This document shows, piece by piece, positions 6,852-58,361 of a stretch of DNA of 64,000 bases. Every line of letters starts with the position of its first letter. Within the stretch, counting starts at the first letter, position 1. A program made the position numbers and the translations under genes. The notes beneath the pieces were generated by a model, which saw only the letters and a program-made list of their open reading frames with translations, was not told where the DNA came from and made no database searches. This DNA comes from an uncultured Methanosarcinales archaeon (GTDB taxonomy: Archaea > Nanobdellota > Nanobdellia > Woesearchaeales > UBA12501), in NCBI GenBank assembly GCA_964343705.1, contig CAYFJX010000005.1, forward strand, positions 66,791 to 130,790. Reading direction: 5' to 3'.

Positions 6852-7718
6852 TTAACCAAGTAAATCATCAATAAATGGCACATTAGTTTTTGAAAGCCAT
6901 TTCATAACACTGGTTGGTATAATCTTAATAACTTTAAACATAAATGTTTCTTCATGCACATCCATGTGGCCATTACCATACGCCTCAAGCAGGAATAAAG
7001 GCCCTTTTTCTTTTGTTGCATCTGAAATAAGCACACCAAACAATGATCCTTTTAACTCTCCTGCACCACCAATTTGCTCAGTGATTTCGCCAAGGTATTG
7101 TTCTTTTGCTTTGTCCTTGTACTCAGGTAAGATGTCATTGTTTTTGATACCTGCAGCAACAACACGGTCAGCATAAATACTTATGGGGTCAGCAGAGTTA
7201 ATAATGGGGAACACATCTTCCAGATTTATGTCTTCACCACCAAATTCTATATAACCTAAAAAATCAAATGCTGGTCGTTTTACAATCATAAGTTTGAAAC
7301 TATCCCCTTTTAACTTGTTTAATTCTCCTCGTTGGAAATATTGGTTGTATTCTTCAATTGTTGCTTGGCTTAAAAATTTTGGTGGGCTTTCAGGTTTAAG
7401 CACACCTATAAATCCAGCTGTGATCTTACCATTATCATTAAGAAGGATTGTTTTTTCTGCATCTGCAAAGTTCTCTTGGAAATTAGCAGTGTCAAGCTGT
7501 AACATAAAACCCACCCCAAAAATAAGCACTGAAAACAAGAGCGATGCAACTCCCATGGGAGTAATCCCTTCTTTAAATAATTTGATTGCACCCAGGACAA
7601 TGGGGATAAGCAGTACAAATATGAGAATAGATCCTATTGTAAGTGCCATGGTGATTCCTCTCTTTTCTGTCAATACTAATGCTTTTTTTCTTTTTAAAGG
7701 TATGGGTTTTAAAGGCAA
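6852..7718 (-). CDS. hypothetical membrane-anchored protein (288 aa)
   Basis: N-terminal TM helices 'ALTIGSILIFVLLIPIVLGAI' and 'ASLLFSVLIFGVGFML', then a soluble domain. Same strand as lspA. Confidence 0.5.
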   Translation of the reverse strand: MPLKPIPLKRKKALVLTEKRGITMALTIGSILIFVLLIPIVLGAIKLFKEGITPMGVASLLFSVLIFGVGFMLQLDTANFQENFADAEKTILLNDNGKITAGFIGVLKPESPPKFLSQATIEEYNQYFQRGELNKLKGDSFKLMIVKRPAFDFLGYIEFGGEDINLEDVFPIINSADPISIYADRVVAAGIKNNDILPEYKDKAKEQYLGEITEQIGGAGELKGSLFGVLISDATKEKGPLFLLEAYGNGHMDVHEETFMFKVIKIIPTSVMKWLSKTNVPFIDDLLG

Positions 7719-8532: not shown

Positions 8533-9723
8533 ATGGATTCTGAAACAGTTAGTGCAATTGAACAAAGACGATTTGAAATCGGTCTTTCTGTTTTTAATAT
8601 GGGCACACTTGATGAGAAAGTAGAACATTGTCGTCGACTTGCTCAGACAGGCTTTACCGCGATTCACCTTGATGAGCATGGTGATGAAACATATTCTCTT
8701 GATGAAGTTCGCAGGTTCACTATGGGCTTTCCTATTGACATTCATAACCTGGTGCATCCTGATGTGCGGCCAATGCCAACAAAAGAGGAGCTTGCTGTCT
8801 TGAAAGGGCATGATGTTCGAGCGTACATGTTTCATCCAACACTAGTTGACGATTCAAAGGAACCAACCTTGCGTGAGGATTCAAGAGAATTTGCTGACCG
8901 TGTACAATCTGTTGGTATCAAAGCATTTGCAGTAGTAGATCATGAATCACCTCTTGAGCTTTTGTGGGCGGGATCATACTTGTATGATCCTAACATTTTT
9001 GACGGCATTACGGTCATGACAGTAAAGTATGGTCAGTCAGGACAAGGGTATACTCCAGCAGTTGAAGACTTTATTGCTCAAGTCAGAAAGCGTATGCATC
9101 CCCAACAAAAATTATGGGTTGATGGAGGTATCAGAGACACAACTATTCCATTACATCAGGGTATTGATGGTGTTGTTTCTGCGTCATACTTACTTAAAGC
9201 TGAAGATCCTAAACTTGCATCACAACGTTTGCAGCCAGAAATTGTCATTGCATCTGACCATGCTGGGTATGATCTTAAAAATAATCTTGTTGCCTACTTG
9301 CGAGCTGAAGGAGTGCGTGTTTGGGATCTGGGTTGTTATGAAGAAGTATCTGAACCAGCAACTGATTATCCTCACTACGCAGCAGCTGTGGCTGACGCAG
9401 TAAGCAATTCAATTGATTTGGTGGATGCTGAGGGTCTTTCTTCTGATGAGGCACTCAAAGGCATCCTAGTTTGTGGTTCAGGAATTGGCATGAGTATCAC
9501 AGCAAACAAATTTGATGGCATTCGAGCAGCACTTGTTCAGGATGCGAGAACAGCACGACTTGCAAAAGAACATAATGATGCAAATGTGTTGTGCCTTGGT
9601 CAGCGATACATCACTCCTGACCAAGCATACGCAGCTGTAGATGCGTGGCGAGACGCTTCACATGAAGAAGAACGACACCAGCGACGTGTTGGAAAGATCT
9701 CAGAGATTGAAGCTGGGATTTAA
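8533..9723 (+). CDS. fusion protein: N-terminal ribulose-phosphate 3-epimerase-like TIM barrel + C-terminal ribose-5-phosphate isomerase B (RpiB/LacAB)
   Basis: RPE-like 'ITVMTVKYGQSGQGYTPAVEDFIAQVRK...LWVDGGI'. RpiB 'IVIASDHAGYDLK' and 'ILVCGSGIGMSITANKFDGIRAAL'. Confidence 0.75.
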   Translation: MDSETVSAIEQRRFEIGLSVFNMGTLDEKVEHCRRLAQTGFTAIHLDEHGDETYSLDEVRRFTMGFPIDIHNLVHPDVRPMPTKEELAVLKGHDVRAYMFHPTLVDDSKEPTLREDSREFADRVQSVGIKAFAVVDHESPLELLWAGSYLYDPNIFDGITVMTVKYGQSGQGYTPAVEDFIAQVRKRMHPQQKLWVDGGIRDTTIPLHQGIDGVVSASYLLKAEDPKLASQRLQPEIVIASDHAGYDLKNNLVAYLRAEGVRVWDLGCYEEVSEPATDYPHYAAAVADAVSNSIDLVDAEGLSSDEALKGILVCGSGIGMSITANKFDGIRAALVQDARTARLAKEHNDANVLCLGQRYITPDQAYAAVDAWRDASHEEERHQRRVGKISEIEAGI

Positions 9724-17250: not shown

Positions 17251-18031
17251 TTATCTTGTTTTTCTTTCTATTATTCTAAACTGCTTTAGGTAATAGTCTC
17301 TTTTTTTCTTTCTTTCAGCACCGCTCTTATGGCGTCCTGTTGCAATCCTAAAATAGTTTGCGCCTGATTCAAAGAAAGAACTTGGCCTACAATAGTTTAT
17401 GCCAGTTCTTCTACTCCTGAAATATCCTCCCTTACACAGTATGGTGTGGGATGTTGTCACGTTTACATGCACATGGGGTTCCTCGCCAGATTCTTTTGCA
17501 TTTCCTGTTTGTCCAACTCTACCAACAATAGTGTCCAAGCCTACATATTGTCCAGGGCGAACAAGCGCTTTGCTCAGGTGTGCATACACAAACTGTAAAC
17601 CACTAGGTGCCTGTATTGTCACAACCTTGCCTCTTTTTGGAAATTCATGATCACGCCCAGCATACACTACTCTGCCTGCAGCAATTGGATAGAGTGGAGT
17701 TCCATTAGGTGCTACAATGTCAACTGCAGGGTGAGGATTAATGCCTCTTTTTGCATTCCAAAATCGTCCACGTCGACCAGCACCCCAATCACCCCATGTT
17801 TTAATACGTTCTTTGGTTGCTTTTTCTCCAATTCGTAACGGGTCTTGGTATTTAGAATATTTCTTAAGGAGTTGCGCATCTGTTAATGGTTTACATCTTT
17901 TCTTTTTCTTCTTTTTTATGTGGTGTGCCTCTGCTTGAGAATATGAAACAGTGTTGTTGTGTAACTCTGTTGGTGCAAGCGTAAGTAATGAAGTCAGGAC
18001 TACTGCAGCGAATACTCTCTTTGCTTTTTTA
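17251..18031 (-). CDS. secreted M23-family (LytM-like) zinc metallopeptidase
   Basis: M23 motifs 'HPAVDIVAP' (HxxxD) and 'PHVHVNV' (HxH). Signal-peptide-like 'KKAKRVFAAVVLTSLLTLAPT'. My translation continues upstream of the Met-defined ORF (17251..17667) to about 18031, with no in-frame ATG/GTG/TTG. Confidence 0.65.
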
Positions 18032-18040
18032 CATATTGTT

Positions 18041-18994
18041 TCAAGCGATATCTTGCATCACCCATGTTCCTATATGATCTAAATCTCCAAAAACTAATCT
18101 TCCCTTTGTTGTCTTTGGCTCAATTTGTACCAATAACATTTTTGACATTGCGATTCGAGGGTCATCATTCCATTCAGCATGGTGGCTAATTGGTCCAATA
18201 CCATATTCAGCTTCTGCTTCACCAGCTCTGTGTAAATCATATAATGCCATGAGTTTGTCAATGGCAGCTTCTCCTTGCGAGGTAAGTTGTTCATGATTGG
18301 CACATTGTTCTCTGTCAGCATATTCTGCCACAACATACTTTTTGAATAAGGGTCTGTTAGTAAGGTCTGAGGTGATGACCACTTTTGCATGCATTAATGG
18401 TTTAGGGGTTATAAGTTCCACCAATCGACCTTTACGATCTTGTCTCACATCAAAGTAATGATGTGGAGGAACTATATCCCCATATCCTATTTTTTCTAAG
18501 AGCGCAGGCATGTTCATAGTGAACGGCATGTAGCCTTTGCGCAAAGGAACAACATAGTGTCCTTGAAACTCTTGTTTTTCTTTGTCTTCTGGAAGCACTA
18601 TTTTAGCAACAGCACCTTTTCCTAATTGTAATACAAGTTGCATACTTCCCTTGCCAATAACTGCAGGTGATTCTTTGCTTATAAGCCTGGTTTCTCTTGC
18701 TCGGTGTTGAATCGCAGCAAGTGCCTCCTCATCTGCTAAATCAGGGTGAGTAATGCTTCTCATTGAAGTATTTACATATGCATCAAGAACAGGACTAGCA
18801 CGTCGTGTTTCTGACTCTATGAGTTTGATAAACCTTTTCTTGGCTTTATCTAGGTTAAAGGTTTGTTGTCCTACACTAGACAAGCCTACAAGATTCCTGA
18901 GTCGGTCGGTTAGTTTCATTTTAGTCTGCAAAGGTGTATAGTTGTTCAAGCTTCTCCCTTGCTTGCTGTATTTCCTTTTTTTTTGTATCATCAC
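18041..18994 (-). CDS. atypical protein-kinase-like protein (probable start at 18919, MKLTDRL)
   Basis: G-loop-like 'IGKGSMQLV' followed by 'AVAKIV' (VAIK-like Lys). 'FGDLDH' DFG-like. Catalytic loop not canonical. Confidence 0.55.
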   Translation of the reverse strand: MMIQKKRKYSKQGRSLNNYTPLQTKMKLTDRLRNLVGLSSVGQQTFNLDKAKKRFIKLIESETRRASPVLDAYVNTSMRSITHPDLADEEALAAIQHRARETRLISKESPAVIGKGSMQLVLQLGKGAVAKIVLPEDKEKQEFQGHYVVPLRKGYMPFTMNMPALLEKIGYGDIVPPHHYFDVRQDRKGRLVELITPKPLMHAKVVITSDLTNRPLFKKYVVAEYADREQCANHEQLTSQGEAAIDKLMALYDLHRAGEAEAEYGIGPISHHAEWNDDPRIAMSKMLLVQIEPKTTKGRLVFGDLDHIGTWVMQDIA

Positions 18995-21185
18995 CCAGTC
19001 TCATTTGCCGCAAAAGACGGGCCCTGAAAATAATTGCACCATCAGCATGCTTCATACCATGTTGGTGGAGTGTATCCATAACAAGCTGTTGCTGACTAAT
19101 ATTATGTTGAGGTACATCAAGCAAGAGACCATGTGCTCCGTTGTAATTATTAGTGTTAGCATAGATGATAGCCAATCTTTCATACGCTGCTTCGTGTTGA
19201 TCGTTGCCTGGTTCATTCTTATTGCGCAGCCGTTGTGTTAGAGATGTTGTGTACTCATCTAGCATCTCCTGCGCGCCAAATGCCCGGACAGCCTTGAAAT
19301 AGCTTTGTACTTCTGCGAGGTCTGCTTCATGTAATCTATCCAAGCATTGTTGAAGTTGATATACTGCGTAGGTGTCTAACTCATCGACGGTATCCTTGTG
19401 CAGTTTTAGAGCATCCCTAATTGCAGTGGCACTATCCCCTGGTTTGCCTTCAAACAAACCACCCCAAGAATACGCAACAGTTCTATTTCTTAGTACTACA
19501 GCCTTGTCCCACTCGCCCTGCATGAGCAGGCCAATCATGGCACTATTGTAGATAGCAGGGTCAAAGTCATGTTCACGAACAATTTTTGCGCAGTCATACA
19601 CTGCTTCAGTGTGTCCTTGTTTTGTTTGTTCAATAACCCAATCATGGATAATTGGATTTGCTATATGGCTGCTTAGTATATTTTTTTGTCTTTGCATGAT
19701 GATTTTTAATCCTTGCTTACTAAAATGTTTATAGTGATGAGAAAGCTCCAGCTTACTCCCCTTTTGGTATTTTCTTATAAAACGTGCTATTTGTTGAAGG
19801 CTATGATACTTTGCGTCTTTATGTCTTAGTTGGATGAAACGCGTGCCAAGATAAGCAACAACAGCACCTGCATAAGCAATAGATGGCTGGCCCATTAGTA
19901 GACCTCCTATGAGAGTAGCGGCTGCTGGAATAAGTCCTGGCCAATTACGTGTTCTTAATTTCAAAGCACTGCTCTGTGCAAAAGAAAGACTCTTGTAACG
20001 CTCAGGCCAATCTTTGACAATGGGAGGAAGTCTATCATGTATTTGTTTATTCCAGAAATCAAAATCATTCTCAGGAACTAAATACCGTTCCTGTTGTAGG
20101 GGAACCTTGCTTTTTGTCTCGCCATCAGCAAGCAAAGCCTTTTGTGTTTCAGACCCTGGAAGTTGTTCGCTTGTACCTTGTAGGAGTTTAGTGGTTAAAC
20201 CAACCATTTCAACTGCAAAAGTTCTCATTGCTTCTTCTGAAGGTGCTACCTCATAGATTCCGGTTGTAGGGTTGTAAAAGCCAAGATTACCACCACTTTG
20301 AATAAAAACTTGTTGTATGTTATCTACTGTTTGTGGTCTGTCATGTTGTTCTTCTTGCAAGCATGCTTCAAGTGTTTTCTTTAATGGCTCTGATATGTTT
20401 GGTGCTCGTCGAACATATTTTATTGGATCATAATCATACTGTCCGGGGATATGAAGTGGTGGTTCTATATGTGTTGCGATTGCTTTTGTTGCCAGGGCAA
20501 GGATGTACCAGTCTGTTGCTGTAGTTGTAGGGATAGTGTGAGTGTCATCATCTCTGTTCATATTTTTTCGCTGCTCTGGTGCAAGGTAGTTTGGTTTACC
20601 AATGATTGTTTCACTTCCTGTGCCATGCTGTTTAAGTCGAGCAATGCCAAAGTCTGTGAGCACAACACGGGTGAAGTCAAAGCGATCATACTGTTCAGTA
20701 ACTTCCAACATGATGTTGTGAGGTGTTGGGTCACGATGGTATATTCCTTGCTTGTGTGCAGCTTGGAGTCCGTGAATTGCAGGGAAAAAAAATCGCTCTA
20801 GTTGCTCTGCGGAGAAGTGACTGCCTTCTTTCATAGCTTGCTGAGCAGATATCCCTCTGATAAGTTCCATGAGAATGTGCATTCCAGGACCATAACCAAC
20901 ATCTTCTTTGAAGCTGTCTACATAGCCAACAACATTAGGGTGGGTTATTGCTTTAAGTGCTTGTGCTTCCCGTTCTATCTCTTGCACTTCAGTTGTTTCC
21001 CAATTTGTAATTTTTGAAAAGTCAACAAGTTTGAGTGCGTACTCTTTTCCTGTTTTTCTATCCATAACTTTGTACACAACACCCATGCCTCCACGTCCAA
21101 GTGGCTTGCCAACTCGTTCAAACTGTTCCCATAGTCCTAGTTCTGGATTTCGGATCGTCATTCTTCTATCCTCTGAATAGTGCAC
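18921..21185 (-). CDS. membrane-spanning eukaryotic-like Ser/Thr protein kinase with large C-terminal repeat-rich domain
   Basis: 'GRGGMGVVYKV', 'YALKL', 'YHRDPTPHNIML' (HRD..N), 'DFGIA', 'APEQ'. Hydrophobic stretch 'GLIPAAATLIGGLLMGQPSIAYAGAVVAYLG', then about 330 aa. A likely ATGA start overlap at 21161. Confidence 0.8.
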   Translation of the reverse strand: MHYSEDRRMTIRNPELGLWEQFERVGKPLGRGGMGVVYKVMDRKTGKEYALKLVDFSKITNWETTEVQEIEREAQALKAITHPNVVGYVDSFKEDVGYGPGMHILMELIRGISAQQAMKEGSHFSAEQLERFFFPAIHGLQAAHKQGIYHRDPTPHNIMLEVTEQYDRFDFTRVVLTDFGIARLKQHGTGSETIIGKPNYLAPEQRKNMNRDDDTHTIPTTTATDWYILALATKAIATHIEPPLHIPGQYDYDPIKYVRRAPNISEPLKKTLEACLQEEQHDRPQTVDNIQQVFIQSGGNLGFYNPTTGIYEVAPSEEAMRTFAVEMVGLTTKLLQGTSEQLPGSETQKALLADGETKSKVPLQQERYLVPENDFDFWNKQIHDRLPPIVKDWPERYKSLSFAQSSALKLRTRNWPGLIPAAATLIGGLLMGQPSIAYAGAVVAYLGTRFIQLRHKDAKYHSLQQIARFIRKYQKGSKLELSHHYKHFSKQGLKIIMQRQKNILSSHIANPIIHDWVIEQTKQGHTEAVYDCAKIVREHDFDPAIYNSAMIGLLMQGEWDKAVVLRNRTVAYSWGGLFEGKPGDSATAIRDALKLHKDTVDELDTYAVYQLQQCLDRLHEADLAEVQSYFKAVRAFGAQEMLDEYTTSLTQRLRNKNEPGNDQHEAAYERLAIIYANTNNYNGAHGLLLDVPQHNISQQQLVMDTLHQHGMKHADGAIIFRARLLRQMRLGDDTKKKEIQQAREKLEQLYTFAD

Positions 21186-24100
21186 AAAGTTTGTGTTTCA
21201 TCATTTATGTGAATTCTATAACCAAAGTTTTCTAGGCGCTTTGTTAATGCATCATATTTTGCTTTATTTGGTAACCAGAAACTTGGAGCTGGCCAGTTCT
21301 CACCAGCAAGCAGCCACCATTCAATAGCGTGTTCTGGACTGTTATGAGGTGGCCTCATGAATTGTTGTTGATATTCATTGCATTGTGTTCGTAATGGTCC
21401 TGGAATTTCCAGTTCAAATACTTTGCATGCGTCGACAAATGAGCGAAGTTGGTGAAGCTCCACATCTTCTCCATTATATGTTTCAAGTGCACTTTCTAAA
21501 CACTCGCGAGCAATCCTGTCAATTCTTGTAGTGTTTACACCCTTATGGACTAAGTAATTCTCTTCTGTGTCTTTTGAAGCAATACCTTCATTTGACCGAC
21601 CAGCATAAAGAGGGGGTACTCCATGTTCTACAACACTTAATCGTACATCAAGTGCGAAGTTCCATGCTCCTGACAGTAGTAGCCCATACATAACTGTTTC
21701 ACTTGTTTCAGGCACAACCATGGCTAGGCCAACTGCAGCAATTTGATCTTCATAGACTCCTTTTACAATTTGAGTGGCTGCATAATGCCGTGCAAAAATA
21801 TTTCTGAGTAATCGTCCATGATTATTTTCAATATCATCTAGTATTGGTATCATCTGACTCATGGCATCTAACTTATCTGCGTTTGCTGTATATTGTCTAA
21901 TGCCACGCATACCATTAGGATGACTAACAAAATCACGTATTTTTTGCTCTCGTAGATTTCCTGTTTTTACTTTTCCATGGTTCCAATCATATCTATCAAG
22001 CCATGCTTCCCATGCTTCGCCTTTTGGTGGGGTTAAATATTGTTCTTGTGGAACTTCATTATTGTCGTTGTTTTCTCGTGGCATCAAATCAGGGAACATT
22101 GCTCCTATAAGTCCTATAAGGTGAAACCTTGGTTGTGTTCCTTCCATGTCTTCTCCCATTGCATTATTTTGTAGAAGGGGTTTTTCCTCATCTGTTAGTT
22201 GGTAGATTCTTTCAGTTGGTATGCGCATTTGTTCTGCCCACTCAAGTGGATCTGCTGAAATTCCATGTGCCCATTGTAAGCCAGTTTCTGGTAGCTGGCC
22301 ATACCCACGTGCAATGTTTCTGCCAGTTGCATATATGCGTCCACTATTTCTTCCGACAAGTAATACATTTCTTTGTTCTGGTTCTGAACTTTCATAGTAC
22401 AACATAGCGAGTCTTTCGGTTGCTATGCTATTTTCTACATCAACGGCAGTTGGTGGTGTAATTCCTCGTCGCCGTTCTGCTGCTTCAAGTGATGCCAATC
22501 CTGCAGGTGAGATTGGTGATCTTTGACGTCTTCTGCCTGTTGCTGATGCAGGAATAAAATCAGAAAACTCTCGCTCAATTATTTCTAGGAGTAGTTGTCT
22601 TCTTGGAGATCCAGGTGCTCGTCCTGCACTGTTAGTCCTTTCTAAAAGAGATATCTCATCTCCTTGTAAGCTGTATAATTGTTCATCAGGTATGTTATTA
22701 TCCCTTGCCCAACGTTCAACATTTCGAATACCTGAATAAGAGTACTGCAATCCAAATTCTTCAATTGTTCCTAATTGTGGTCTGATGCCTCTGTCTACTT
22801 CCTCAATCGCATCACCACTTGGGCTGAGGATGAGTATGTTTCTTTCCATAGGTCTTGGTCCAAGAAAGTACACAGCAGCAACATCAGTTCGTGGTTCTGG
22901 TTGTGTTGTTGGAGTTCTTCCTGCTAGTACATCATCAAGTGCACCACCAATATTGTCAGCGTCAATACTTGTACGTTGTTCTCTTCCTGGTTGCTCCAAA
23001 CCTTGTTGACTAAACATATCATTAATCATTCCTGCAACTTCTGTATGGCTTCTTGTAGGATTTAGCAAATCATCATTTAGCCACCCTCGTGGTGTCACAT
23101 GATAGTTATCATCAGTTACTCCCCATCGTTGTTCAATGTTTGTTCTCTCCCGTGCATGAAGAAGCAGGGTGTCATATGATCCAATTGCTGGGTAGCCGCA
23201 GAAGTTGATGTTTCCAATGTACTCCAGTCCTATTTCTTCAATTACTTCTTGTGTTCCTACAATAAGTATTCGTTCAAGGAGCATGTCTGCAAGGATACCA
23301 TGGATTCTTAGATCTCTTTGTGGTGTTGGTGTTGTTGCAACAGCAGGTGTGCTTTGTTCTGTTATAGGCAGTTGTGGTTGAATAAATCTGACAAGCGCAG
23401 CAATATCAGATGGTTCTGATAATCGCGTTCCCAACATTCCAGGTGGTGCAGCAACTCGTTTATAGTTATCTGTATCTCTAAACATATCTCGTGTGCCATT
23501 GGCAACAACTAATCCTTTATAGGGGCCAATATCACGATTGGTAGTTATAATCCCTGCTGGCCCATAGCGTCTCCTCATATTTCTAATTCCTTCTTCATTG
23601 CTAACAATCATGTTGTAACTGGATGTTGAATCTAATAACATGAGGTACTCAGGAGCTTGCGAGTTTACATCTCGTGCAGTTGGCCAATTATCACCAACTA
23701 AATATCTAAATGCGTCAACACCCATGTGTTCGCCTTCTTGCACAACACCATCAACACGAAGCATTGCATCAAGGTCTGCAGGGTCAAGTCTATGCCATCC
23801 TCGTCGTGTGGCAGCAGCTTGTGCACATAACTTAGCAATTAAGGCAGGATTCTCAGGTACTTTGAATTGGTACGCTTCATACACTGCTTGCCAAGTACTT
23901 TGCAAAAGATCAAGAAATGGTCGAGCATGTGTTGTTCGTAAATTCTGTCTAAACTGTGCTTGTGCAACTTCATCAAGAGTTGGGTTTGCAGCAAGTCCAA
24001 GCACCATACTGTCATGCGCGTGAATATTGCTGTGACCCATACGTGTAATCATTAAATCTGCAATTCTTAATTGTGCATAGTGCCATTGCCATTCTTCTAC

Positions 24101-24397
24101 TTGTCGAGGTAATACTGATTTGTTCAAGCCTGTAGCAACTTGTGTTGCTCCTGCACGCATATCTTGGGGTATAGGAGTGTATGATCGTAAATAGTCTTCA
24201 ATAATTGTTTCTACTACTTGGGCATCTCGCTCACGAACACTACCCATTATGTCGCGCACTGTTGTGCTTGGCCCATGTACTTGTAGTCGTAGTGTTCGGA
24301 TAGTGTCATCTACTTTCTTTGCAAGCCAGTCAACATCATTAAGAAATGATGTAGGATTCAAGCCTTTTGCCCTTTTGAGGAAGTCAGTAATGCTCAT
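21158..24397 (-). CDS. giant hypothetical protein (1079 aa), paralogous to the adjacent 866-aa protein
   Basis: Uninterrupted ORF. No signal peptide or TM. Shares block 'WEAWLDRYDWNHGKVKTGN' and a downstream roughly 200-aa region with the 866-aa neighbour. Arg-rich SP-motif linker. Confidence 0.8.
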   Translation of the reverse strand: MSITDFLKRAKGLNPTSFLNDVDWLAKKVDDTIRTLRLQVHGPSTTVRDIMGSVRERDAQVVETIIEDYLRSYTPIPQDMRAGATQVATGLNKSVLPRQVEEWQWHYAQLRIADLMITRMGHSNIHAHDSMVLGLAANPTLDEVAQAQFRQNLRTTHARPFLDLLQSTWQAVYEAYQFKVPENPALIAKLCAQAAATRRGWHRLDPADLDAMLRVDGVVQEGEHMGVDAFRYLVGDNWPTARDVNSQAPEYLMLLDSTSSYNMIVSNEEGIRNMRRRYGPAGIITTNRDIGPYKGLVVANGTRDMFRDTDNYKRVAAPPGMLGTRLSEPSDIAALVRFIQPQLPITEQSTPAVATTPTPQRDLRIHGILADMLLERILIVGTQEVIEEIGLEYIGNINFCGYPAIGSYDTLLLHARERTNIEQRWGVTDDNYHVTPRGWLNDDLLNPTRSHTEVAGMINDMFSQQGLEQPGREQRTSIDADNIGGALDDVLAGRTPTTQPEPRTDVAAVYFLGPRPMERNILILSPSGDAIEEVDRGIRPQLGTIEEFGLQYSYSGIRNVERWARDNNIPDEQLYSLQGDEISLLERTNSAGRAPGSPRRQLLLEIIEREFSDFIPASATGRRRQRSPISPAGLASLEAAERRRGITPPTAVDVENSIATERLAMLYYESSEPEQRNVLLVGRNSGRIYATGRNIARGYGQLPETGLQWAHGISADPLEWAEQMRIPTERIYQLTDEEKPLLQNNAMGEDMEGTQPRFHLIGLIGAMFPDLMPRENNDNNEVPQEQYLTPPKGEAWEAWLDRYDWNHGKVKTGNLREQKIRDFVSHPNGMRGIRQYTANADKLDAMSQMIPILDDIENNHGRLLRNIFARHYAATQIVKGVYEDQIAAVGLAMVVPETSETVMYGLLLSGAWNFALDVRLSVVEHGVPPLYAGRSNEGIASKDTEENYLVHKGVNTTRIDRIARECLESALETYNGEDVELHQLRSFVDACKVFELEIPGPLRTQCNEYQQQFMRPPHNSPEHAIEWWLLAGENWPAPSFWLPNKAKYDALTKRLENFGYRIHINDETQTLCTIQRIEE

Positions 24398-26994
24398 TGT
24401 TCTGACCTCTCAGCAATTCGTTCTTCAATAAATGCTAGCATGGCTTCTTTGTCAGGTAGTGGGTCCCTGTGGTTTCCTACTAATCCTTCTGGCCCAATAA
24501 TGCGATCGTATTTTCGTTCCTGGCCAAGAGTGTGTGCCATCCCTTCTGATACAATAAGTCCATGGTAATCGCCTACTTCACACTGAGTACTCTGTAGTCT
24601 GTTTCTCTGGTAATGTGCTGATAACTCATCAATGAGTGTTTCATTACCAACAATAAGCGCATGGTTTCCTTCTTTCGGATCTACTATGATGTCATACACA
24701 ACTGCTTTTTGCGGTTTTTCAATATATACTAGGCCACCTCCCATGCAAACTTGTAGGCCCATTGGCTTGAGTCTTTCTCTTAATGATCGTGCTTCGGAAA
24801 GCGGGGGGTTTGATGTAATACTATCTGAACTAATTGATACAGTGTTTCCAATAATTAAATTCTCAGCTTCTCCAGAAAGAATTGTAAACTCTGCTGCTCG
24901 TTCATACTGGTTGTTTTCTCTAGCAATACCGTACCTGATTACTGCTTCAGCAGGTTGGTAGCCAAATGTGCGGCAGGTGTCAACATATTTTTGTAAGTCT
25001 TCAAGAGATGCTTCAGCTCTCCTTTCAAACATGTCTGCAAGCACTTCTTGAGCAAGTTTATCAAGCCTTGCAGTCTTATTTGGTCCAAGTGTTTGTATGC
25101 AATAATTATCTTCGTTGTCTTTAGCTTCAATTGCTTTAGGGATAGTACTTACACTGTCGCGGTAACTTGTTTCACTGTTTTGAAGACGAAGACAGCCAGC
25201 TTTGTCTAAGTGCCTTGCACGAATTAATCCTTCAAGTACTGGTTCAAGCATTTCTGGAACATCTGCTGCAAGCTCCATTGCACGTTGATGGTCTCCATCA
25301 ACAATAAGTTTTGCAGCGTAGTGGTTGGCAAGGAATTTGGTTCGTCTAGTGCCTAATTCATATCTTGGGAAAACATCTTTGACAGATTCAGGATTTGTTA
25401 TTCGTAATCGCTCAACCATGTTAGGCAGCTGATCAGAGAATGCTTCTACATTATGATCACTGAAGTTTCCAGTTTTAACTTTTCCTCGGTTCCAGTCGTA
25501 CTTGTCTCGCCATGCTTCCCATTGTCCAATCCCCCTTAGTCGTTCAACTATATTTCGTGCTCTTTTGTAACTAGGTAGGTTTTGATGGTGATTTAATCCA
25601 GTAAGGGTTTGCAGTTCATCGCTGCTTAACACATGTATTTTTTCAGAGGGAGTGCGAATTGCTTCAAGAAATTGTGAAGAAATTCTATCAAAACTAAGTA
25701 GGTAATATTGATGGTGTCTTTGTAGATTGAAATTTCTGACTTCGAAGCTTTGAGCGTAGCTGTGAGTTCTGGACATTTTTCCCTCTATTTCGGGTTTGCA
25801 GTAAAATGTCAGGTCTCCATCTGTTGCATTTTGTGTCACGAAAAGAACCAAGTCATCAAAGCTTGGTCCAAAGTGTTCTTGTATTTTTTGTTTAAGTATC
25901 TCATGTTGTTCTTCTGAAAAACCAGATAGTGTGTCCAAACTTATATTAACACCAAGATTGTCTGCAGTGAACACACGAGGTAGATCAAGCTCTTCTTGTA
26001 CTTGTCGGATCTGGCCAGGGTCTTCTAAAAAAAATACTTGCCGCTTAGCAACTTGTCCCCAGCTTATGTGTCCATTGGGTGGTCCTGCCTGAAGATTATA
26101 GCCAATAAGGTAGGCTTGATCCTCTGCCTCGTTGACAATTAGTCCTTCATACAATAGTTCTAGTGTTGCTGTTTCTACAGGTGCAGCATCAAAACCAGTA
26201 ATAAGGTTTTCAGCAACAGTTCTCAACTGGCCTGGTGTCATTGTTGTACTTCGTGCGCTAAGTTCTATTTCTAATCTCCTAGCTTCAACATCATTTCTAG
26301 CAAAATCTTCTACAGTTTGTGCAATCAATTGAGGGGTGACTTGTAGGCTAGTGGGTTCAGTCCACCCACCTAATGGTTCTTGTGCTTGGATCCTATCAAG
26401 TTCTTCATCTTCACGAACACGCATAACATGGTAAATATCTTCTGCTGTTCCATCACGGAATGCTGAAAAGTTGTGACGTTGTCTCCATCCAATTCGTTGT
26501 AATGCTTCTTCACTTTTGTCACCTTGCCCATTTGCCATAAGCAAAAGATTGATTCCTTCTGCAAGTTCTGCATCTACACCTACAAAAAAGTCGTTTGCAA
26601 ACTTTGCTGCTGCAGCTTTTCTCTCATAATACACTTCCCATCTTTGGCGTTCGTGTTTGCGGCCTGCTACATTGTTTAGAATTGCAAGTTCATGGGGGTC
26701 ACTGGTGTTCCATGCATTATCATTGCGACGCGGTGCGTCTTCAGCAAGGTCTTGATTAAACACTACTTGGTGTGCCCGCATTGCATCAAGATATCCTCCA
26801 ACTGTTTCTTTAACAAGTCGCACGTCCCCATTGCCCTTAAATAAACCCATAAAGTCAAAGTTTGGTCTATCATGTTGGATCAAGCGAAGTGCTGCAATGA
26901 CTTCTTCTGCCAGACTGGTTGTATAGTCAACTGCGTCCAAGAACGAGAACTTGGTGACATTCTCAAGTGTGAGAGGAAGTTCTGGCTTACTCAT
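24394..26994 (-). CDS. giant hypothetical protein (866 aa), paralogue of the 1079-aa protein, with extra C-terminal domain
   Basis: Uninterrupted ORF. Block 'WEAWRDKYDWNRGKVKTGN'. C-terminal about 170 aa with 'VCMGGGLVYI...LIVGNETLIDEL'. ATGA overlap with downstream gene. Confidence 0.8.
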   Translation of the reverse strand: MSKPELPLTLENVTKFSFLDAVDYTTSLAEEVIAALRLIQHDRPNFDFMGLFKGNGDVRLVKETVGGYLDAMRAHQVVFNQDLAEDAPRRNDNAWNTSDPHELAILNNVAGRKHERQRWEVYYERKAAAAKFANDFFVGVDAELAEGINLLLMANGQGDKSEEALQRIGWRQRHNFSAFRDGTAEDIYHVMRVREDEELDRIQAQEPLGGWTEPTSLQVTPQLIAQTVEDFARNDVEARRLEIELSARSTTMTPGQLRTVAENLITGFDAAPVETATLELLYEGLIVNEAEDQAYLIGYNLQAGPPNGHISWGQVAKRQVFFLEDPGQIRQVQEELDLPRVFTADNLGVNISLDTLSGFSEEQHEILKQKIQEHFGPSFDDLVLFVTQNATDGDLTFYCKPEIEGKMSRTHSYAQSFEVRNFNLQRHHQYYLLSFDRISSQFLEAIRTPSEKIHVLSSDELQTLTGLNHHQNLPSYKRARNIVERLRGIGQWEAWRDKYDWNRGKVKTGNFSDHNVEAFSDQLPNMVERLRITNPESVKDVFPRYELGTRRTKFLANHYAAKLIVDGDHQRAMELAADVPEMLEPVLEGLIRARHLDKAGCLRLQNSETSYRDSVSTIPKAIEAKDNEDNYCIQTLGPNKTARLDKLAQEVLADMFERRAEASLEDLQKYVDTCRTFGYQPAEAVIRYGIARENNQYERAAEFTILSGEAENLIIGNTVSISSDSITSNPPLSEARSLRERLKPMGLQVCMGGGLVYIEKPQKAVVYDIIVDPKEGNHALIVGNETLIDELSAHYQRNRLQSTQCEVGDYHGLIVSEGMAHTLGQERKYDRIIGPEGLVGNHRDPLPDKEAMLAFIEERIAERSEQ

Positions 26995-27172
26995 TCTTAC
27001 CTACCTCATCAAGCATTGTGCGAACATCAACTGTGCGCTTACGCTGGTAGTCTAATCGGTTCTTACATCGTGGGCAAGCCTTAGGGCTAGGAACACGGGG
27101 CTTCCAGTTATACTTACAGAATGTACAGAGTGCTTCCTTCTCAGCCATGCTCGTAGTAGTAAAACAGATCAT
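26987..27172 (-). CDS. small zinc-ribbon protein (C-x2-C...C-x2-C)
   Basis: 'CTFCKYNWKPRVPSPKACPRC'. Overlaps the start of the 866-aa gene by 8 nt. Likely start is the internal 'MAEKEAL'. Confidence 0.45.
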   Translation of the reverse strand: MICFTTTSMAEKEALCTFCKYNWKPRVPSPKACPRCKNRLDYQRKRTVDVRTMLDEVGKNE

Positions 27173-27303
27173 TAATAAGCCTTTCTGAAGGGTTTAAATG
27201 GTGCTTTTTCAGTGTATATTCATTTACTATCATTAATTTCCATATGGAAAATAAAGGAACTAAAGCTAAAAAACCCATAAAAAAACAAGAAAAAAAAGAA
27301 AAC

Positions 27304-27447
27304 CTAAGCTTCTGCTTCAGGTACCTTGAGTCTATCAACGCAAGGGTTACAATAGATTTCAGACGGTTTAGCATTAATCATCTTATCCTTACACCGTCTA
27401 CAATAAGAAATTTTCTTAAATCCACTAATTCTTTGAAATGCAGCCAT
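27304..27447 (-). CDS. small zinc-ribbon protein (47 aa; below ORF-track cutoff)
   Basis: My translation of the minus strand gives 'MAAFQRISGFKKISYCRRCKDKMINAKPSEIYCNPCVDRLKVPEAEA'. It is the first gene of the minus-strand operon. Confidence 0.4.
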   Translation of the reverse strand: MAAFQRISGFKKISYCRRCKDKMINAKPSEIYCNPCVDRLKVPEAEA

Positions 27448-27700: not shown

Positions 27701-28054
27701 CTAAACATGCCCTTGCAGCTTATCCTTTAATTGCTCTTTAGGCAGTGCACCCACTATTCTATCTACTTCTTTGCCATCTTTGAAGATGATCAAGCAAGGA
27801 ATGCTCATCACACCGTACTGGCCAGCTGTTTCTTGATTGTTTTGCACATCTAGCTTGTAGAAAGTCATGCCTTCAATCTCCTTTGATAATTCTTCAAATA
27901 CTGGTCCGAGCTGTTTGCAAGGCATACACCATTCTGCCCAGAAGTCCACTACTACAGTGCCTTCACTTACTTTTTGCTGGAACGTTTCTTTTGTCAGTTC
28001 TTGTACCACTTTTTCCACCCCATGCTCTTGTTCGTGTTGGACCTTTGTAACCAA
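27701..28054 (-). CDS. thioredoxin
   Basis: 'VVDFWAEWCMPCKQLGP' (WCxPC active site). About 105-aa Trx fold. Annotated start is TTG and overlaps the upstream gene, so the true start is uncertain. Confidence 0.78.
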   Translation of the reverse strand: MVTKVQHEQEHGVEKVVQELTKETFQQKVSEGTVVVDFWAEWCMPCKQLGPVFEELSKEIEGMTFYKLDVQNNQETAGQYGVMSIPCLIIFKDGKEVDRIVGALPKEQLKDKLQGHV

Positions 28055-53598: not shown

Positions 53599-53691
53599 GC
53601 CCTTGTAGCATAGTGGTAGTGCACTGCCTTGGTATGGTCAGTAATGACAACAAAGAGGCAGAGGTCCCGAGTTCAAATCTCGGCAAGGGCT
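53599..53691 (+). tRNA. tRNA-Thr (anticodon GGT) with 21-nt intron at canonical 37/38
   Basis: Acceptor GCCCTTG/CAAGGGC, D stem GCAT/GTGC, anticodon stem CTGCC/GGCAG, loop TTGGTA[intron]A, T arm CCGAG-TTCAAAT-CTCGG. Confidence 0.75.
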
Positions 53692-55928: not shown

Positions 55929-58361
55929 ATGGAAAAAAAAGTGAAGATTATTGCTGTACTTGCAGTTTTACTTGTAAGTTTATTCTATTTTGGAGATAAA
56001 TTCACTGGCCTTGCGGTGAATGATGGTTCTCGGGCTCAACAGTTACAAGATTGTGTTGCAGGTGGTACTTCTCTATTACAATGTCGGCTTAATGCTGGTA
56101 TTCTTACTCAAGCAGAGTTTGAAGCTGCAGGTGGTAACGCTATTGCAGGAGCAGCAGTTGCAGGTTTGCCTTCACAAGCAGAGTATAAAAAAATGATTCA
56201 CACTGTTTGGCGAAATTACAAACCATTTATCCATAGCTGGATTTCTTTTTCTTTTTCTGATGACTCTACTTCAGGTAAGCGAACTCGTGCACTATACGAT
56301 CTCCAAGGGTGGACAAACAATCTTTTGTTGTACGCGTCTGCAAACAATGATATTGCATTGTTAGATGATCTTGCTGAGACCTATCTTATGCCCCTGCAGT
56401 ATCTTGAAACAAAAAATGTGTATCGTTATGCCTATCTCCCTGAAAAATTACCACCTCAAAATCTACCTGCAGGTGAAGAAAAACAGCGTTTGTGGAAGCA
56501 GTTTTATCGTACAGATCTCCAACTTGAAAAACCAATTCTTATGTGGTCACGAAGCCGAGATAAGTCAATGGAGTTGAGATTAGATGTTGGCCAATTTTTA
56601 TATCTTGCCTCTGATGCTCTTAATGCGTTTCTTGCGGTTCCTCAGGATCAAAGAACTCCAAATATGCAACGCTTTATACGAGAATACCCCCCTGTTATTA
56701 AGGCTCATTACCAACGCTGGGTCATAGATGACCATCGGATGTTTGGTTTACAGGGGTGGGGTTGTAATGAGTATGGGTCAGATAGATATAATCATCTTAA
56801 CTACTTAAAATCTCTACGGGACGAAACTTGGACGCCACGAAACAAGGACAAGCCAAATACTTTATGTAATTCAATGACAGATATTGACACTTGGATGGTT
56901 GTAGGGGTTGTCAAAATGCTTGCAGCCAACCACAAAGATCCTTCCGCAATGCCACTCACCCAGGAACAAAAAACCAAGTTTATGGAATATGTTGGTGTTG
57001 GCACACAAGCTATAGAAAGAAGAATGAATCCAAATCAGCTTACTGACTTTGCAGGTAAACAAGTGGTTGGATTTAACTTTGAACAGAACCGAGGGGATAC
57101 TCACCCTGATAATGTATGGTCAGGCTATGAAGGGGCAAGCTATCCTACAGAAAATGATAAATCTTCACGAAAGACAGGATGGGATTTTAGCCACGCTACG
57201 AGACTTCCTTATGTCTTTGACACATTATACAAACATAAAGATATAACAGGGCAATCCTTCCCCACGCAAGATACCATGAAAAAAGTAGCTAACCAATATG
57301 TGTATGGGGTATTCAACAAAGACCTTGAACTTCCTCTTTTTAGTAACTTTTTTAGTGGGGATAATGGTTGGTTCAGGGTGAACTATGGTTGGAGTCCAAA
57401 AAGTGGAAAGCCTGCTCCAGGAACTGGCACACCTCCTTATGGCCAGAACTACGCAGGTCCATCGTATTTCATGTCCTTGGCAAAGTATACTCCTGATAAA
57501 AACAAACTATTGCCAGCAATATGGAATATATTAACTACGAACATGGTAAAAGACAAATCACACAATGGTAATCTAGCAACAGGATGGAAGGTTACAAGTA
57601 ATCCTGAAGGCAAGTTTGGAGGCAGTTTAGTTTTTGATCATCCAGAAAGATACAAAGAGTATCTTTGGTGCGGGAAACACACAGATTGGATACAGTCTAA
57701 GGGAACGTTTGCATTCTGGGTGAAAACAGCTGAACAAAATGTTGATATGGATGTCCTTGATCTGTGGGAAGTGCCTTACACTGATATCTTTATTGTGATG
57801 GTAAATAAACAAAATAAAGTTTGGTTCACCGTCAAAGAGGCGAACAACAAACTTATCAGTCTTACTTCGAAAAAAGCCATGGATGCTCCAGGATGGCATC
57901 ATGTTGTGATAACACAAGATGGGAGTGGAGCAAAAATATACATTGATGGTGAGCTTAGCGAGACAAGCGGAAAAAATAGTGCTGAATGGACAAATACTCT
58001 CAATATGCATCACTTTCCGAAATTTAATGATGCGTACAACAGTGCAGGTTGTTACTTGGGCAATTCTCACTGGACAAAATTTAGAGGGGAACTTGACGAA
58101 GTGTATTTCTTGAATCGTGCATTGTCTGCAGAGGAAGTACAGCAATTACACCAAAATACTCTAAAAAACAAAGAAGGATTACTTATTCACTGGAGTTTTG
58201 ATGACCTTCTTGATGTGAAAAAGATGGAACACAAAGATCTCTATTATGGTCCAAGAGATTATTATAACAAAAATCCTCCGAAGCTTGTTGAACAGTATTT
58301 TCCTGATAAATCAAAAACTATGCTTATTGCTTTACCTGTATTTGCCTTGGGAAGTTCTTAG
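55929..58361 (+). CDS. large secreted protein with C-terminal concanavalin-A-like/LamG domain
   Basis: Signal peptide 'KIIAVLAVLLVSLFYF'. C-terminal 'GTFAFWVKT...DGSGAKIYIDGEL' is a LamG/pentraxin-like jelly-roll pattern. Confidence 0.65.
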   Translation: MEKKVKIIAVLAVLLVSLFYFGDKFTGLAVNDGSRAQQLQDCVAGGTSLLQCRLNAGILTQAEFEAAGGNAIAGAAVAGLPSQAEYKKMIHTVWRNYKPFIHSWISFSFSDDSTSGKRTRALYDLQGWTNNLLLYASANNDIALLDDLAETYLMPLQYLETKNVYRYAYLPEKLPPQNLPAGEEKQRLWKQFYRTDLQLEKPILMWSRSRDKSMELRLDVGQFLYLASDALNAFLAVPQDQRTPNMQRFIREYPPVIKAHYQRWVIDDHRMFGLQGWGCNEYGSDRYNHLNYLKSLRDETWTPRNKDKPNTLCNSMTDIDTWMVVGVVKMLAANHKDPSAMPLTQEQKTKFMEYVGVGTQAIERRMNPNQLTDFAGKQVVGFNFEQNRGDTHPDNVWSGYEGASYPTENDKSSRKTGWDFSHATRLPYVFDTLYKHKDITGQSFPTQDTMKKVANQYVYGVFNKDLELPLFSNFFSGDNGWFRVNYGWSPKSGKPAPGTGTPPYGQNYAGPSYFMSLAKYTPDKNKLLPAIWNILTTNMVKDKSHNGNLATGWKVTSNPEGKFGGSLVFDHPERYKEYLWCGKHTDWIQSKGTFAFWVKTAEQNVDMDVLDLWEVPYTDIFIVMVNKQNKVWFTVKEANNKLISLTSKKAMDAPGWHHVVITQDGSGAKIYIDGELSETSGKNSAEWTNTLNMHHFPKFNDAYNSAGCYLGNSHWTKFRGELDEVYFLNRALSAEEVQQLHQNTLKNKEGLLIHWSFDDLLDVKKMEHKDLYYGPRDYYNKNPPKLVEQYFPDKSKTMLIALPVFALGSS

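Follow-up and report, generated by a model that had tools for sequence, protein, structure and literature searches.

A gene island with a predicted secreted M23 endopeptidase and rare modular proteins in a woesearchaeal archaeon

The gene row and its junctions

The 64,000-nucleotide (nt) stretch analyzed here, called the window, to which all window coordinates refer, comes from contig CAYFJX010000005.1 (positions 66,791 to 130,790) of an uncultured archaeon placed in the Woesearchaeales. Between 27447 and 17251, its minus strand carries seven open reading frames (ORFs), which were read from the sequence and are listed in Table 1. They encode two small Zn-ribbon proteins, two large proteins (G866 and G1079), a Hanks-type Ser/Thr kinase, the orphan protein P292, and an M23/LytM metallo-endopeptidase. 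Three results are firm. P292 and the M23 peptidase, which is predicted to be secreted, form a conserved pair; the large proteins belong, by sequence comparison, to a very rare modular family with swapped C-termini; and the two large proteins, probably together with the kinase, have a module in common. The island is located between thioredoxin/NYN genes on one side and S6e on the other. A DPANN-type archaeal host is borne out by S6e, deoxyhypusine synthase, and further housekeeping genes, and a relative of the large proteins is annotated as Candidatus Woesearchaeota. In the following, L001, L004, and L005 denote contigs carrying relatives, and P0002 and P0005-P0008 denote homologous proteins.

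A preliminary description of this DNA presented seven consecutive packed genes with five tight junctions. All seven ORFs are real, and four of the five junctions are exact. Zn-ribbon protein 2 and G866 overlap by 8 nt (ATGAGTAA, 26994/26987), the junctions between G866 and G1079 (24397/24394) and between G1079 and the kinase (21161/21158) are both ATGA, and the kinase and P292 are joined as TAA-A-ATG (18921/18919). The fifth junction, given as 18031/18041 at the M23 gene, was wrong as written. Zn-ribbon protein 1 also stands apart from the packed genes, being followed by a spacer of about 130-155 nt with runs of eight, seven, and six T (27297-27268), which looks like an archaeal oligo-T terminator, a putative function. 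On L001, a VapBC pair separates the copy of Zn-ribbon protein 1 (7388-7528, 64% identical) from the other genes. The packed row therefore consists of six genes, and Zn-ribbon protein 1 is probably a separate transcription unit. A TTTAAA box lies 5' of Zn-ribbon protein 2, the first gene of the packed row, and the six genes from Zn-ribbon protein 2 through G866, G1079, the kinase, and P292 to M23 are probably co-transcribed.

Both small proteins show a CxxC...CxxC pattern. A 77-amino-acid (aa) ORF at 27141-27374 was dismissed, as it consists mostly of T-rich spacer and is not conserved. An origin of the island from a mobile element was dismissed too, since there is no integrase, the GC content equals that of the surroundings, and tandem repeats are lacking. 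At the edge of the island, the longest ORFs of thioredoxin and NYN overlap by 92 nt (window 27963-28054). The source gene call starts thioredoxin later (105 aa), so that the true overlap is smaller.

Table 1. Genes and features of the island (window coordinates)
Feature	Coordinates	Strand	Remarks
Zn-ribbon protein 1	27304..27447	-	47 aa, CRRC...CNPC; weak Zn-ribbon Pfam matches
T8/T7/T6 runs	27268..27300	-	immediately 3' of Zn-ribbon protein 1
Zn-ribbon protein 2	26987..27148	-	53 aa from ATG 27148, or 61 aa from 27172; CTFC...CPRC
G866	24394..26994	-	866 aa; no signal peptide, no membrane segment
G1079	21158..24397	-	1079 aa
Hanks-type Ser/Thr kinase	18921..21161	-	746 aa; Pkinase 4.8e-35
P292	18041..18919	-	292 aa, orphan, cytoplasmic
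M23/LytM metallo-endopeptidase	17251..18051	-	266 aa counted from ATA 18051; secreted (predicted)

The peptidase pair and the modular proteins

The last gene of the row was described as encoding a secreted M23 peptidase. The peptidase is borne out by the Pfam match and the motifs, and a predicted signal peptide points to secretion. The Peptidase_M23 match (1e-19, 70.9 bits against a cutoff of 28.7) places the domain at 17736-17452, and both Zn ligand motifs, HPAVD (HxxxD) and HVH (HxH), are intact. A Lys-rich stretch precedes the domain and a basic tail follows it, and the whole protein is very basic (52 K+R versus 19 D+E). The signal peptide at about 18051-17932 begins with KKAKR, continues with VFAAVVLTSLLTLA, and ends in ...SQA; its sequence is conserved in L004. 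A signal peptide is kept in all three M23 orthologues, Sec-type in the window and in L004 (55% identity) and Tat-type in L001 (38% identity). In viral contigs and phage records, the M23 protein is matched only through its generic M23 domain, by phage tape-measure or lysin proteins of about 34% identity.

The start of the M23 gene is unusual. The frame is open from 18057 to 17251, and its first ATG, GTG, or TTG is a GTG at 17667, within the M23 domain region. Another ATG, at 18034, belongs to a different frame and is directly followed by TAA. The sole upstream in-frame start is ATA at 18051-18049, and in an alignment of the orthologous junctions the ATG of the L004 orthologue falls exactly on this codon. 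The overlap between M23 and P292 is 11 nt in both the window and L004, and a Shine-Dalgarno-like GGTGAT motif is found 5 nt upstream of the ATA. Two independent Logan assemblies from separate runs are 100% identical at the M23 start; therefore, the missing canonical start is not an assembly error. The gene would either initiate at ATA, probably weakly, or have lost its start codon recently.

P292 is located directly upstream of the M23 gene in every locus where either occurs (three loci). The overlapping junction is retained between the window and L004 despite sequence divergence. The only homologues of P292 are P0005 (57%) and a 267-aa protein of L001 (about 32-34%). H246 and GDLDH (278-282) are invariant in P292 and are candidates for an enzymatic site. 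P292 had been called pseudokinase-like, a label for which we see no support: hhalign gave a probability of 0.3% against the kinase domain and 0.2% against the APH protein of the window, there is no Pfam match even at E = 10, and no PDB match was obtained. An AlphaFold2 model built with the only usable homologue reached a predicted local distance difference test (pLDDT) value of 36, which is unusable and too poor to judge the fold.

The two large proteins are built from shared modules. G1079 starts with the N-domain (residues 1-245, 24397-23663), which is followed by a ~100-aa module (247-343), S/T/P-rich linkers, and a C-module (796-1033, 22012-21299). It also contains an internal repeat of ~80 aa (residues 507-586 and 664-743, E = 1e-11). 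G866 has a divergent form of the same N-domain, as its N-terminus matches the N-domain of P0007 (E = 5e-8), then the C-module (492-709, 25521-24868) and the ~100-aa module (763-860, 24708-24415). The C-module of ~240 aa is 31% identical between the two (E = 1e-20), and the ~100-aa module, differently placed in each, is shared at E = 6e-8. By these comparisons the two proteins are mosaic paralogues, and their paralogy agrees with the preliminary description. Its term "giant" overstates lengths of 866 and 1079 aa.

G866, G1079, and P292 have no match in Pfam, NCBIfam, PADLOC, PHROGs, or PDB sequences. PDB sequence searches with G866 and G1079 and with profiles of P292, the N-domain, the C-module, and the P0006-type C-terminus returned nothing significant. 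A match of the C-module profile to designer PPR proteins (E = 2.7e-14) was rejected as an artefact of ten identical repeats scoring 4-7 bits each; at most, the C-module may contain one PPR/TPR-like hairpin. AlphaFold2, applied to residues 1-350 of G1079 with seven aligned rows, predicted the N-domain as an all-helical bundle (pLDDT about 66) with no specific structural neighbour and left the remainder unmodelled.

An exhaustive HMMER search over 1.84 billion representatives recovered the N-domain in six clusters, namely G1079, G866, P0002 (827 aa), P0006 (543 aa, the protein annotated Candidatus Woesearchaeota), P0007 (546 aa), and P0008 (410 aa). In all six members, the ~240-aa N-domain is followed by a linker, a short conserved motif (e.g., NADDIGAAVDAAERGETVR in P0006), and then differing C-termini. 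Alignments of the N-domain and P292 were further scanned against species-representative genomes and JGI metagenomes, which added nothing, and viral contigs and phage records contained no relatives of either. A word-indexed search for G866 homologues returned only G866 itself. None of the N-domain proteins has a signal peptide.

The kinase was described as a transmembrane Ser/Thr kinase, and its kinase domain and hydrophobic anchor are both real. The Pkinase match (PF00069) scores 121.7 bits against a cutoff of 31.7 over residues 17-285 (21113-20307), and the motifs GRGGMG, YALK, YHRDPTPHN, TDFG, and LAPE can be read from the translation. Hydropathy places an anchor of 32 residues at 409-440 (19937-19842); QPS stands in the middle of this stretch, which is flanked by positive charges on either side. 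Within the helical C-terminal domain, similarity to the C-module was seen over residues ~535-629 (19559-19275; BLASTP 3e-4; hhalign probability 68%, E = 4.8e-5). The only Pfam signals in this tail are sub-threshold TPR matches. The C-terminus of the kinase therefore probably carries the C-module of G866 and G1079. As this module otherwise occurs in proteins without a signal peptide, it argues against the "ectodomain" of the receptor architecture assigned earlier; the kinase and the anchor stand, and the ectodomain is doubtful. The SP-rich linker of G1079 had also been suggested as a kinase substrate. Such S/T/P-rich linkers are present in all family members, including those at kinase-less loci, and are therefore not specific evidence for this relation.

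Loci of relatives

Synteny between L001 and the window extends from enolase, DEAD, NYN, and thioredoxin through to S6e. The interval in L001 contains Zn-ribbon protein 1, the VapBC pair, split and intact PF12640 genes, Zn-ribbon protein 2, an 827-aa N-domain protein, a Fic gene on the opposite strand, the P292 homologue, the Tat-signal M23, and a repeat protein. The kinase and G866 are absent. At the position of G866 (L001 8287-10004), PF12640 (peptide-arginase-like) genes are found in two copies, of which one is intact and the other split (178 + 82 aa), and the homologue of Zn-ribbon protein 2 (9106-9237, 57% identical) overlaps the next gene, the intact PF12640 copy. The peptide arginases FlmR/OhkR belong to PF12640 (PMC12703449). 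In both syntenic genomes, the genes that vary beside the N-domain proteins therefore encode protein-modifying enzymes, a kinase in the window and Fic plus arginase-like proteins in L001. Identity to L001 amounts to 52% for the N-domain, 38% for M23, and about 32-34% for P292, and the rest of the large protein cannot be aligned. Island proteins are 32-57% identical to their L001 counterparts compared with 50-81% for the flanking housekeeping proteins, which indicates that the island is diverging faster than its flanks.

The other loci retain less. In L004, a contig of 2 kb, the gene upstream is a different one, and P294 and an M23 gene with an ATG start follow it; within these 2 kb, only P292 and M23 are retained. 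In L005, from a Candidatus Woesearchaeota metagenome-assembled genome (MAG), the P0006 gene precedes that of an SLT lytic transglycosylase with a Tat signal by about 230 nt. Directly 3' of the SLT gene (L005 12896-14825, minus strand) are three consecutive ~200-aa multi-pass membrane proteins, which may be paralogues. The P0008 locus lies 3' of an RNA polymerase/S12/S7 operon, and the P0007 locus lies among toxin-antitoxin genes. Conserved linkage of all seven genes is not supported by these comparisons, since L001 has neither the kinase nor G866 and L004 keeps only P292 and M23. Only a part of the row is conserved in relatives.

Some features elsewhere in the window were recorded as well. A tRNA gene at 53599-53691 (plus strand, 93 nt, Rfam 60.6 bits), for which ARAGORN names no anticodon, is likely to be interrupted by an intron, as is known from some archaeal tRNAs. 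At 55929-58361 (plus strand), an 810-aa protein carries a C-terminal Laminin_G_3/ConA-like lectin domain (1.1e-19) and is possibly a surface or adhesion protein; its exact sequence is not in a collection of 15 billion proteins. A 396-aa ORF at 8533-9723 (plus strand) combines a ribulose-phosphate 3-epimerase region with an RpiB domain, so that two enzymes of pentose-phosphate metabolism appear to be fused.

Possible function and known systems

We tentatively favour the reading that the locus is a fast-evolving, lineage-specific island that serves to attack bacterial walls or to attach to them, with modular cytoplasmic partners under post-translational control. The core would be the overlapping pair of P292 and the secreted M23 endopeptidase, accompanied by the Zn-ribbon protein and by members of the rare helical N-domain family. 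We know of no murein in this archaeal group. Because of this, and because the M23 protein is catalytically intact, very basic, and signal-bearing, its most likely substrate would be the peptidoglycan of bacteria, either of competitors or prey or on the surface of a bacterial host. For the cytoplasmic N-domain proteins, a role as scaffolds or regulators, or possibly as cargo, is conceivable, and their C-terminal modules would be exchanged between relatives. The membrane-anchored kinase may dock to the N-domain proteins via the shared C-module and phosphorylate them, and in relatives Fic AMPylase or peptide-arginase-like enzymes would take its place. The function is a proposal: gene order, domain identities, the sharing of modules, and partial conservation are observed, whereas the peptidase target, any kinase-substrate relation, and any coupling of the cytoplasmic proteins to the peptidase are what we infer. 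In favour of the proposal are the M23 motifs and signal peptides, the adjacency of P292 and M23 in all three loci, the rarity of the N-domain family and its differing C-termini, the SLT gene near that of P0006, the C-module common to G866, G1079, and probably the kinase, the protein-modifying neighbours, and the fast divergence of the island proteins. As background, bacteria have been shown to be killed by archaeal peptidoglycan hydrolases, M23 enzymes among them (PMC12352652), and an antibacterial use has been proposed for murein hydrolases secreted by Woesearchaeota (PMC8204110, PMC9723730).

Several observations weigh against this proposal. In the catalytic loop of the kinase, HRDPTPHN (20700-20677, minus strand, residues ~155-162), Thr stands where the usual HRDLKPxN has Lys, although the other catalytic motifs (Gly-loop, beta3 Lys, DFG, and APE) are intact. 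The kinase was found only in this genome, and its link to the C-module is of moderate strength (hhalign probability 68%). The M23 protein has no wall-binding domain and, with its non-canonical ATA start, may be weakly expressed or decaying. P0007 and P0008 have no adjoining hydrolase. The window and L001 are syntenic relatives, so that common descent, rather than selection, may account for the linkage they share. The same genome often has overlapping junctions at other places (enolase/His_Phos 11 nt, VapB/VapC 17 nt, and APH/next gene 4 nt); therefore, packing alone is weak evidence of a functional unit. Finally, profile, PDB, and model comparisons allowed no fold or function to be assigned to P292, the N-domain, or the C-module.

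The main rival explanation, which we consider somewhat unlikely, is that there is no system at all. The interval would be a variable hotspot between housekeeping genes that collects unrelated lineage-specific genes, toxin-antitoxin modules, and a horizontally acquired M23, and its packing would reflect a compact genome. This agrees with the different compositions of the window, L001, and L004, with the VapBC, PIN, and Fic genes in the same interval, with the common overlaps among other neighbouring genes, and with the abundance of islands of uncharacterised genes in DPANN genomes (PMC6393860). However, a module is common to three adjacent genes, the P292/M23 pair has kept its overlapping junction despite sequence divergence, and in L005, an unrelated locus, an N-domain protein again has a secreted wall hydrolase as its neighbour. 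A further explanation is a polymorphic effector or toxin system, in which the helical N-domain would serve in trafficking or loading, the swapped C-termini would be payloads delivered into a neighbouring cell, M23 or SLT would breach the wall, and P292 and Zn-ribbon protein 2 would act as adaptors or chaperones. A conserved N-terminal region with variable C-terminal regions is indeed present, as the N-domain and the short motif precede unrelated C-termini, and the fast evolution, the neighbouring wall hydrolases, and the nearby conflict-type genes are also compatible with it. On the other hand, no toxin or immunity family was recognised in Pfam, PDB, or PADLOC, the examined loci contain no secretion genes, and the N-domain proteins lack signal peptides. 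We consider this explanation unlikely.

A role of the island in antiviral defence or abortive infection, with the kinase and the large proteins as sensors of infection, is very unlikely. The kinase domain does score well against defence-kinase models of PADLOC (mad6 4e-38, PD-T4-6 3e-37), and the locus is variable, adjoins toxin-antitoxin genes, and has a Fic gene in the relative. Yet only the generic kinase domain is matched, as the six other proteins have no PADLOC match and NCBIfam MAD6 reaches 93.8 bits against a cutoff of 460. Moreover, it is hard to see what a secreted peptidoglycan peptidase would contribute to defence in an archaeon without murein, and no relatives were found in viral or phage collections. 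The preliminary description drew an analogy to PknB-type wall-sensing kinases, by which the kinase would control an autolysin acting on the organism's own wall. We regard this as extremely improbable. A membrane-anchored Hanks kinase does adjoin an M23 hydrolase, and a D-Ala-D-Ala-ligase-like gene is found in a related MAG locus, but the likeness is architectural only. Pfam detects no PASTA or other wall-sensing domain in the kinase, and the NCBIfam model PknB_PASTA (NF033483) reaches 110 bits against a cutoff of 450, through the kinase domain part only. The C-terminal domain of the kinase is similar to modules found in cytoplasmic proteins, relatives that keep M23 have no such kinase, and the group has no murein that we are aware of.

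A more far-reaching version of the favoured reading is decidedly unlikely at present. The N-domain proteins, P292, and Zn-ribbon protein 2 would constitute an unknown DPANN apparatus that loads, regulates, or delivers wall-degrading enzymes and modular effectors against bacteria, under interchangeable protein-modifying enzymes (kinase, Fic, and peptide arginase). If true, archaeal anti-bacterial weaponry, or episymbiosis on bacteria, would thereby gain its first described regulatory or delivery system.

The evidence for archaea attacking bacteria is recent and thin, and partner contact in DPANN is largely unknown. If the link of the peptidase to the conserved cytoplasmic proteins and the signalling kinase is functional, the locus provides testable candidates for the control or delivery of a secreted murein peptidase. 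Otherwise, there would still be the three orphan families that the locus defines (N-domain, C-module, and P292), restricted to a narrow archaeal lineage.

No described system matches the composition of the locus, as had been suggested before, and several are similar in part. M23 homologues of zoocin A are known in archaea, e.g., Woldo of Halogranum salarium, and M23 proteins have also been reported in Nanoarchaeia (PMC12352652). These hydrolases and the window protein have in common the M23 domain with a secretion signal (predicted in the window protein), a murein-less archaeon, and a patchy, fast-evolving distribution. In contrast to them, the window M23 has no peptidoglycan-binding domain, has a putative ATA start, is always preceded by the orphan P292, and is surrounded by kinase and N-domain proteins. 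Large extracellular lytic-transglycosylase proteins have been described in Woesearchaeota and Pacearchaeota (fam00969), including "vampiristic" Woesearchaeota (PMC8204110, PMC9723730). They come from the same archaeal group and are secreted murein-degrading enzymes proposed to act on bacteria, and the N-domain relative in L005 adjoins an SLT protein. However, each fam00969 member is one protein with an SLT domain and can reach 3,000 aa, whereas the window has a small M23 and separate cytoplasmic partners.

The bacterial PASTA kinases (PknB, StkP, and IreK), regulators of wall hydrolases, likewise have a Hanks domain followed by a membrane anchor and a gene near a wall hydrolase. The window kinase differs by the lack of PASTA repeats, by a helical C-terminal domain that it probably shares with signal-less proteins, by its archaeal origin, and by a linkage that is not conserved. 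With polymorphic toxin systems that have a helical N-terminal trafficking domain, e.g., the LXG toxins of type VII secretion, the N-domain family shares the layout of a helical ~240-aa N-domain, a linker, and C-termini that are unrelated across genomes; it differs from them in having no sequence or significant fold match, and no toxin or immunity domains or secretion system were identified. The kinase-containing anti-phage systems PD-T4-6 and MADS Mad6 have a Hanks-type kinase domain too, but the match is limited to this domain and their partner genes are unrelated. The known part of the island is the archaeal secreted peptidoglycan hydrolase, and the new part is the three orphan families around M23.

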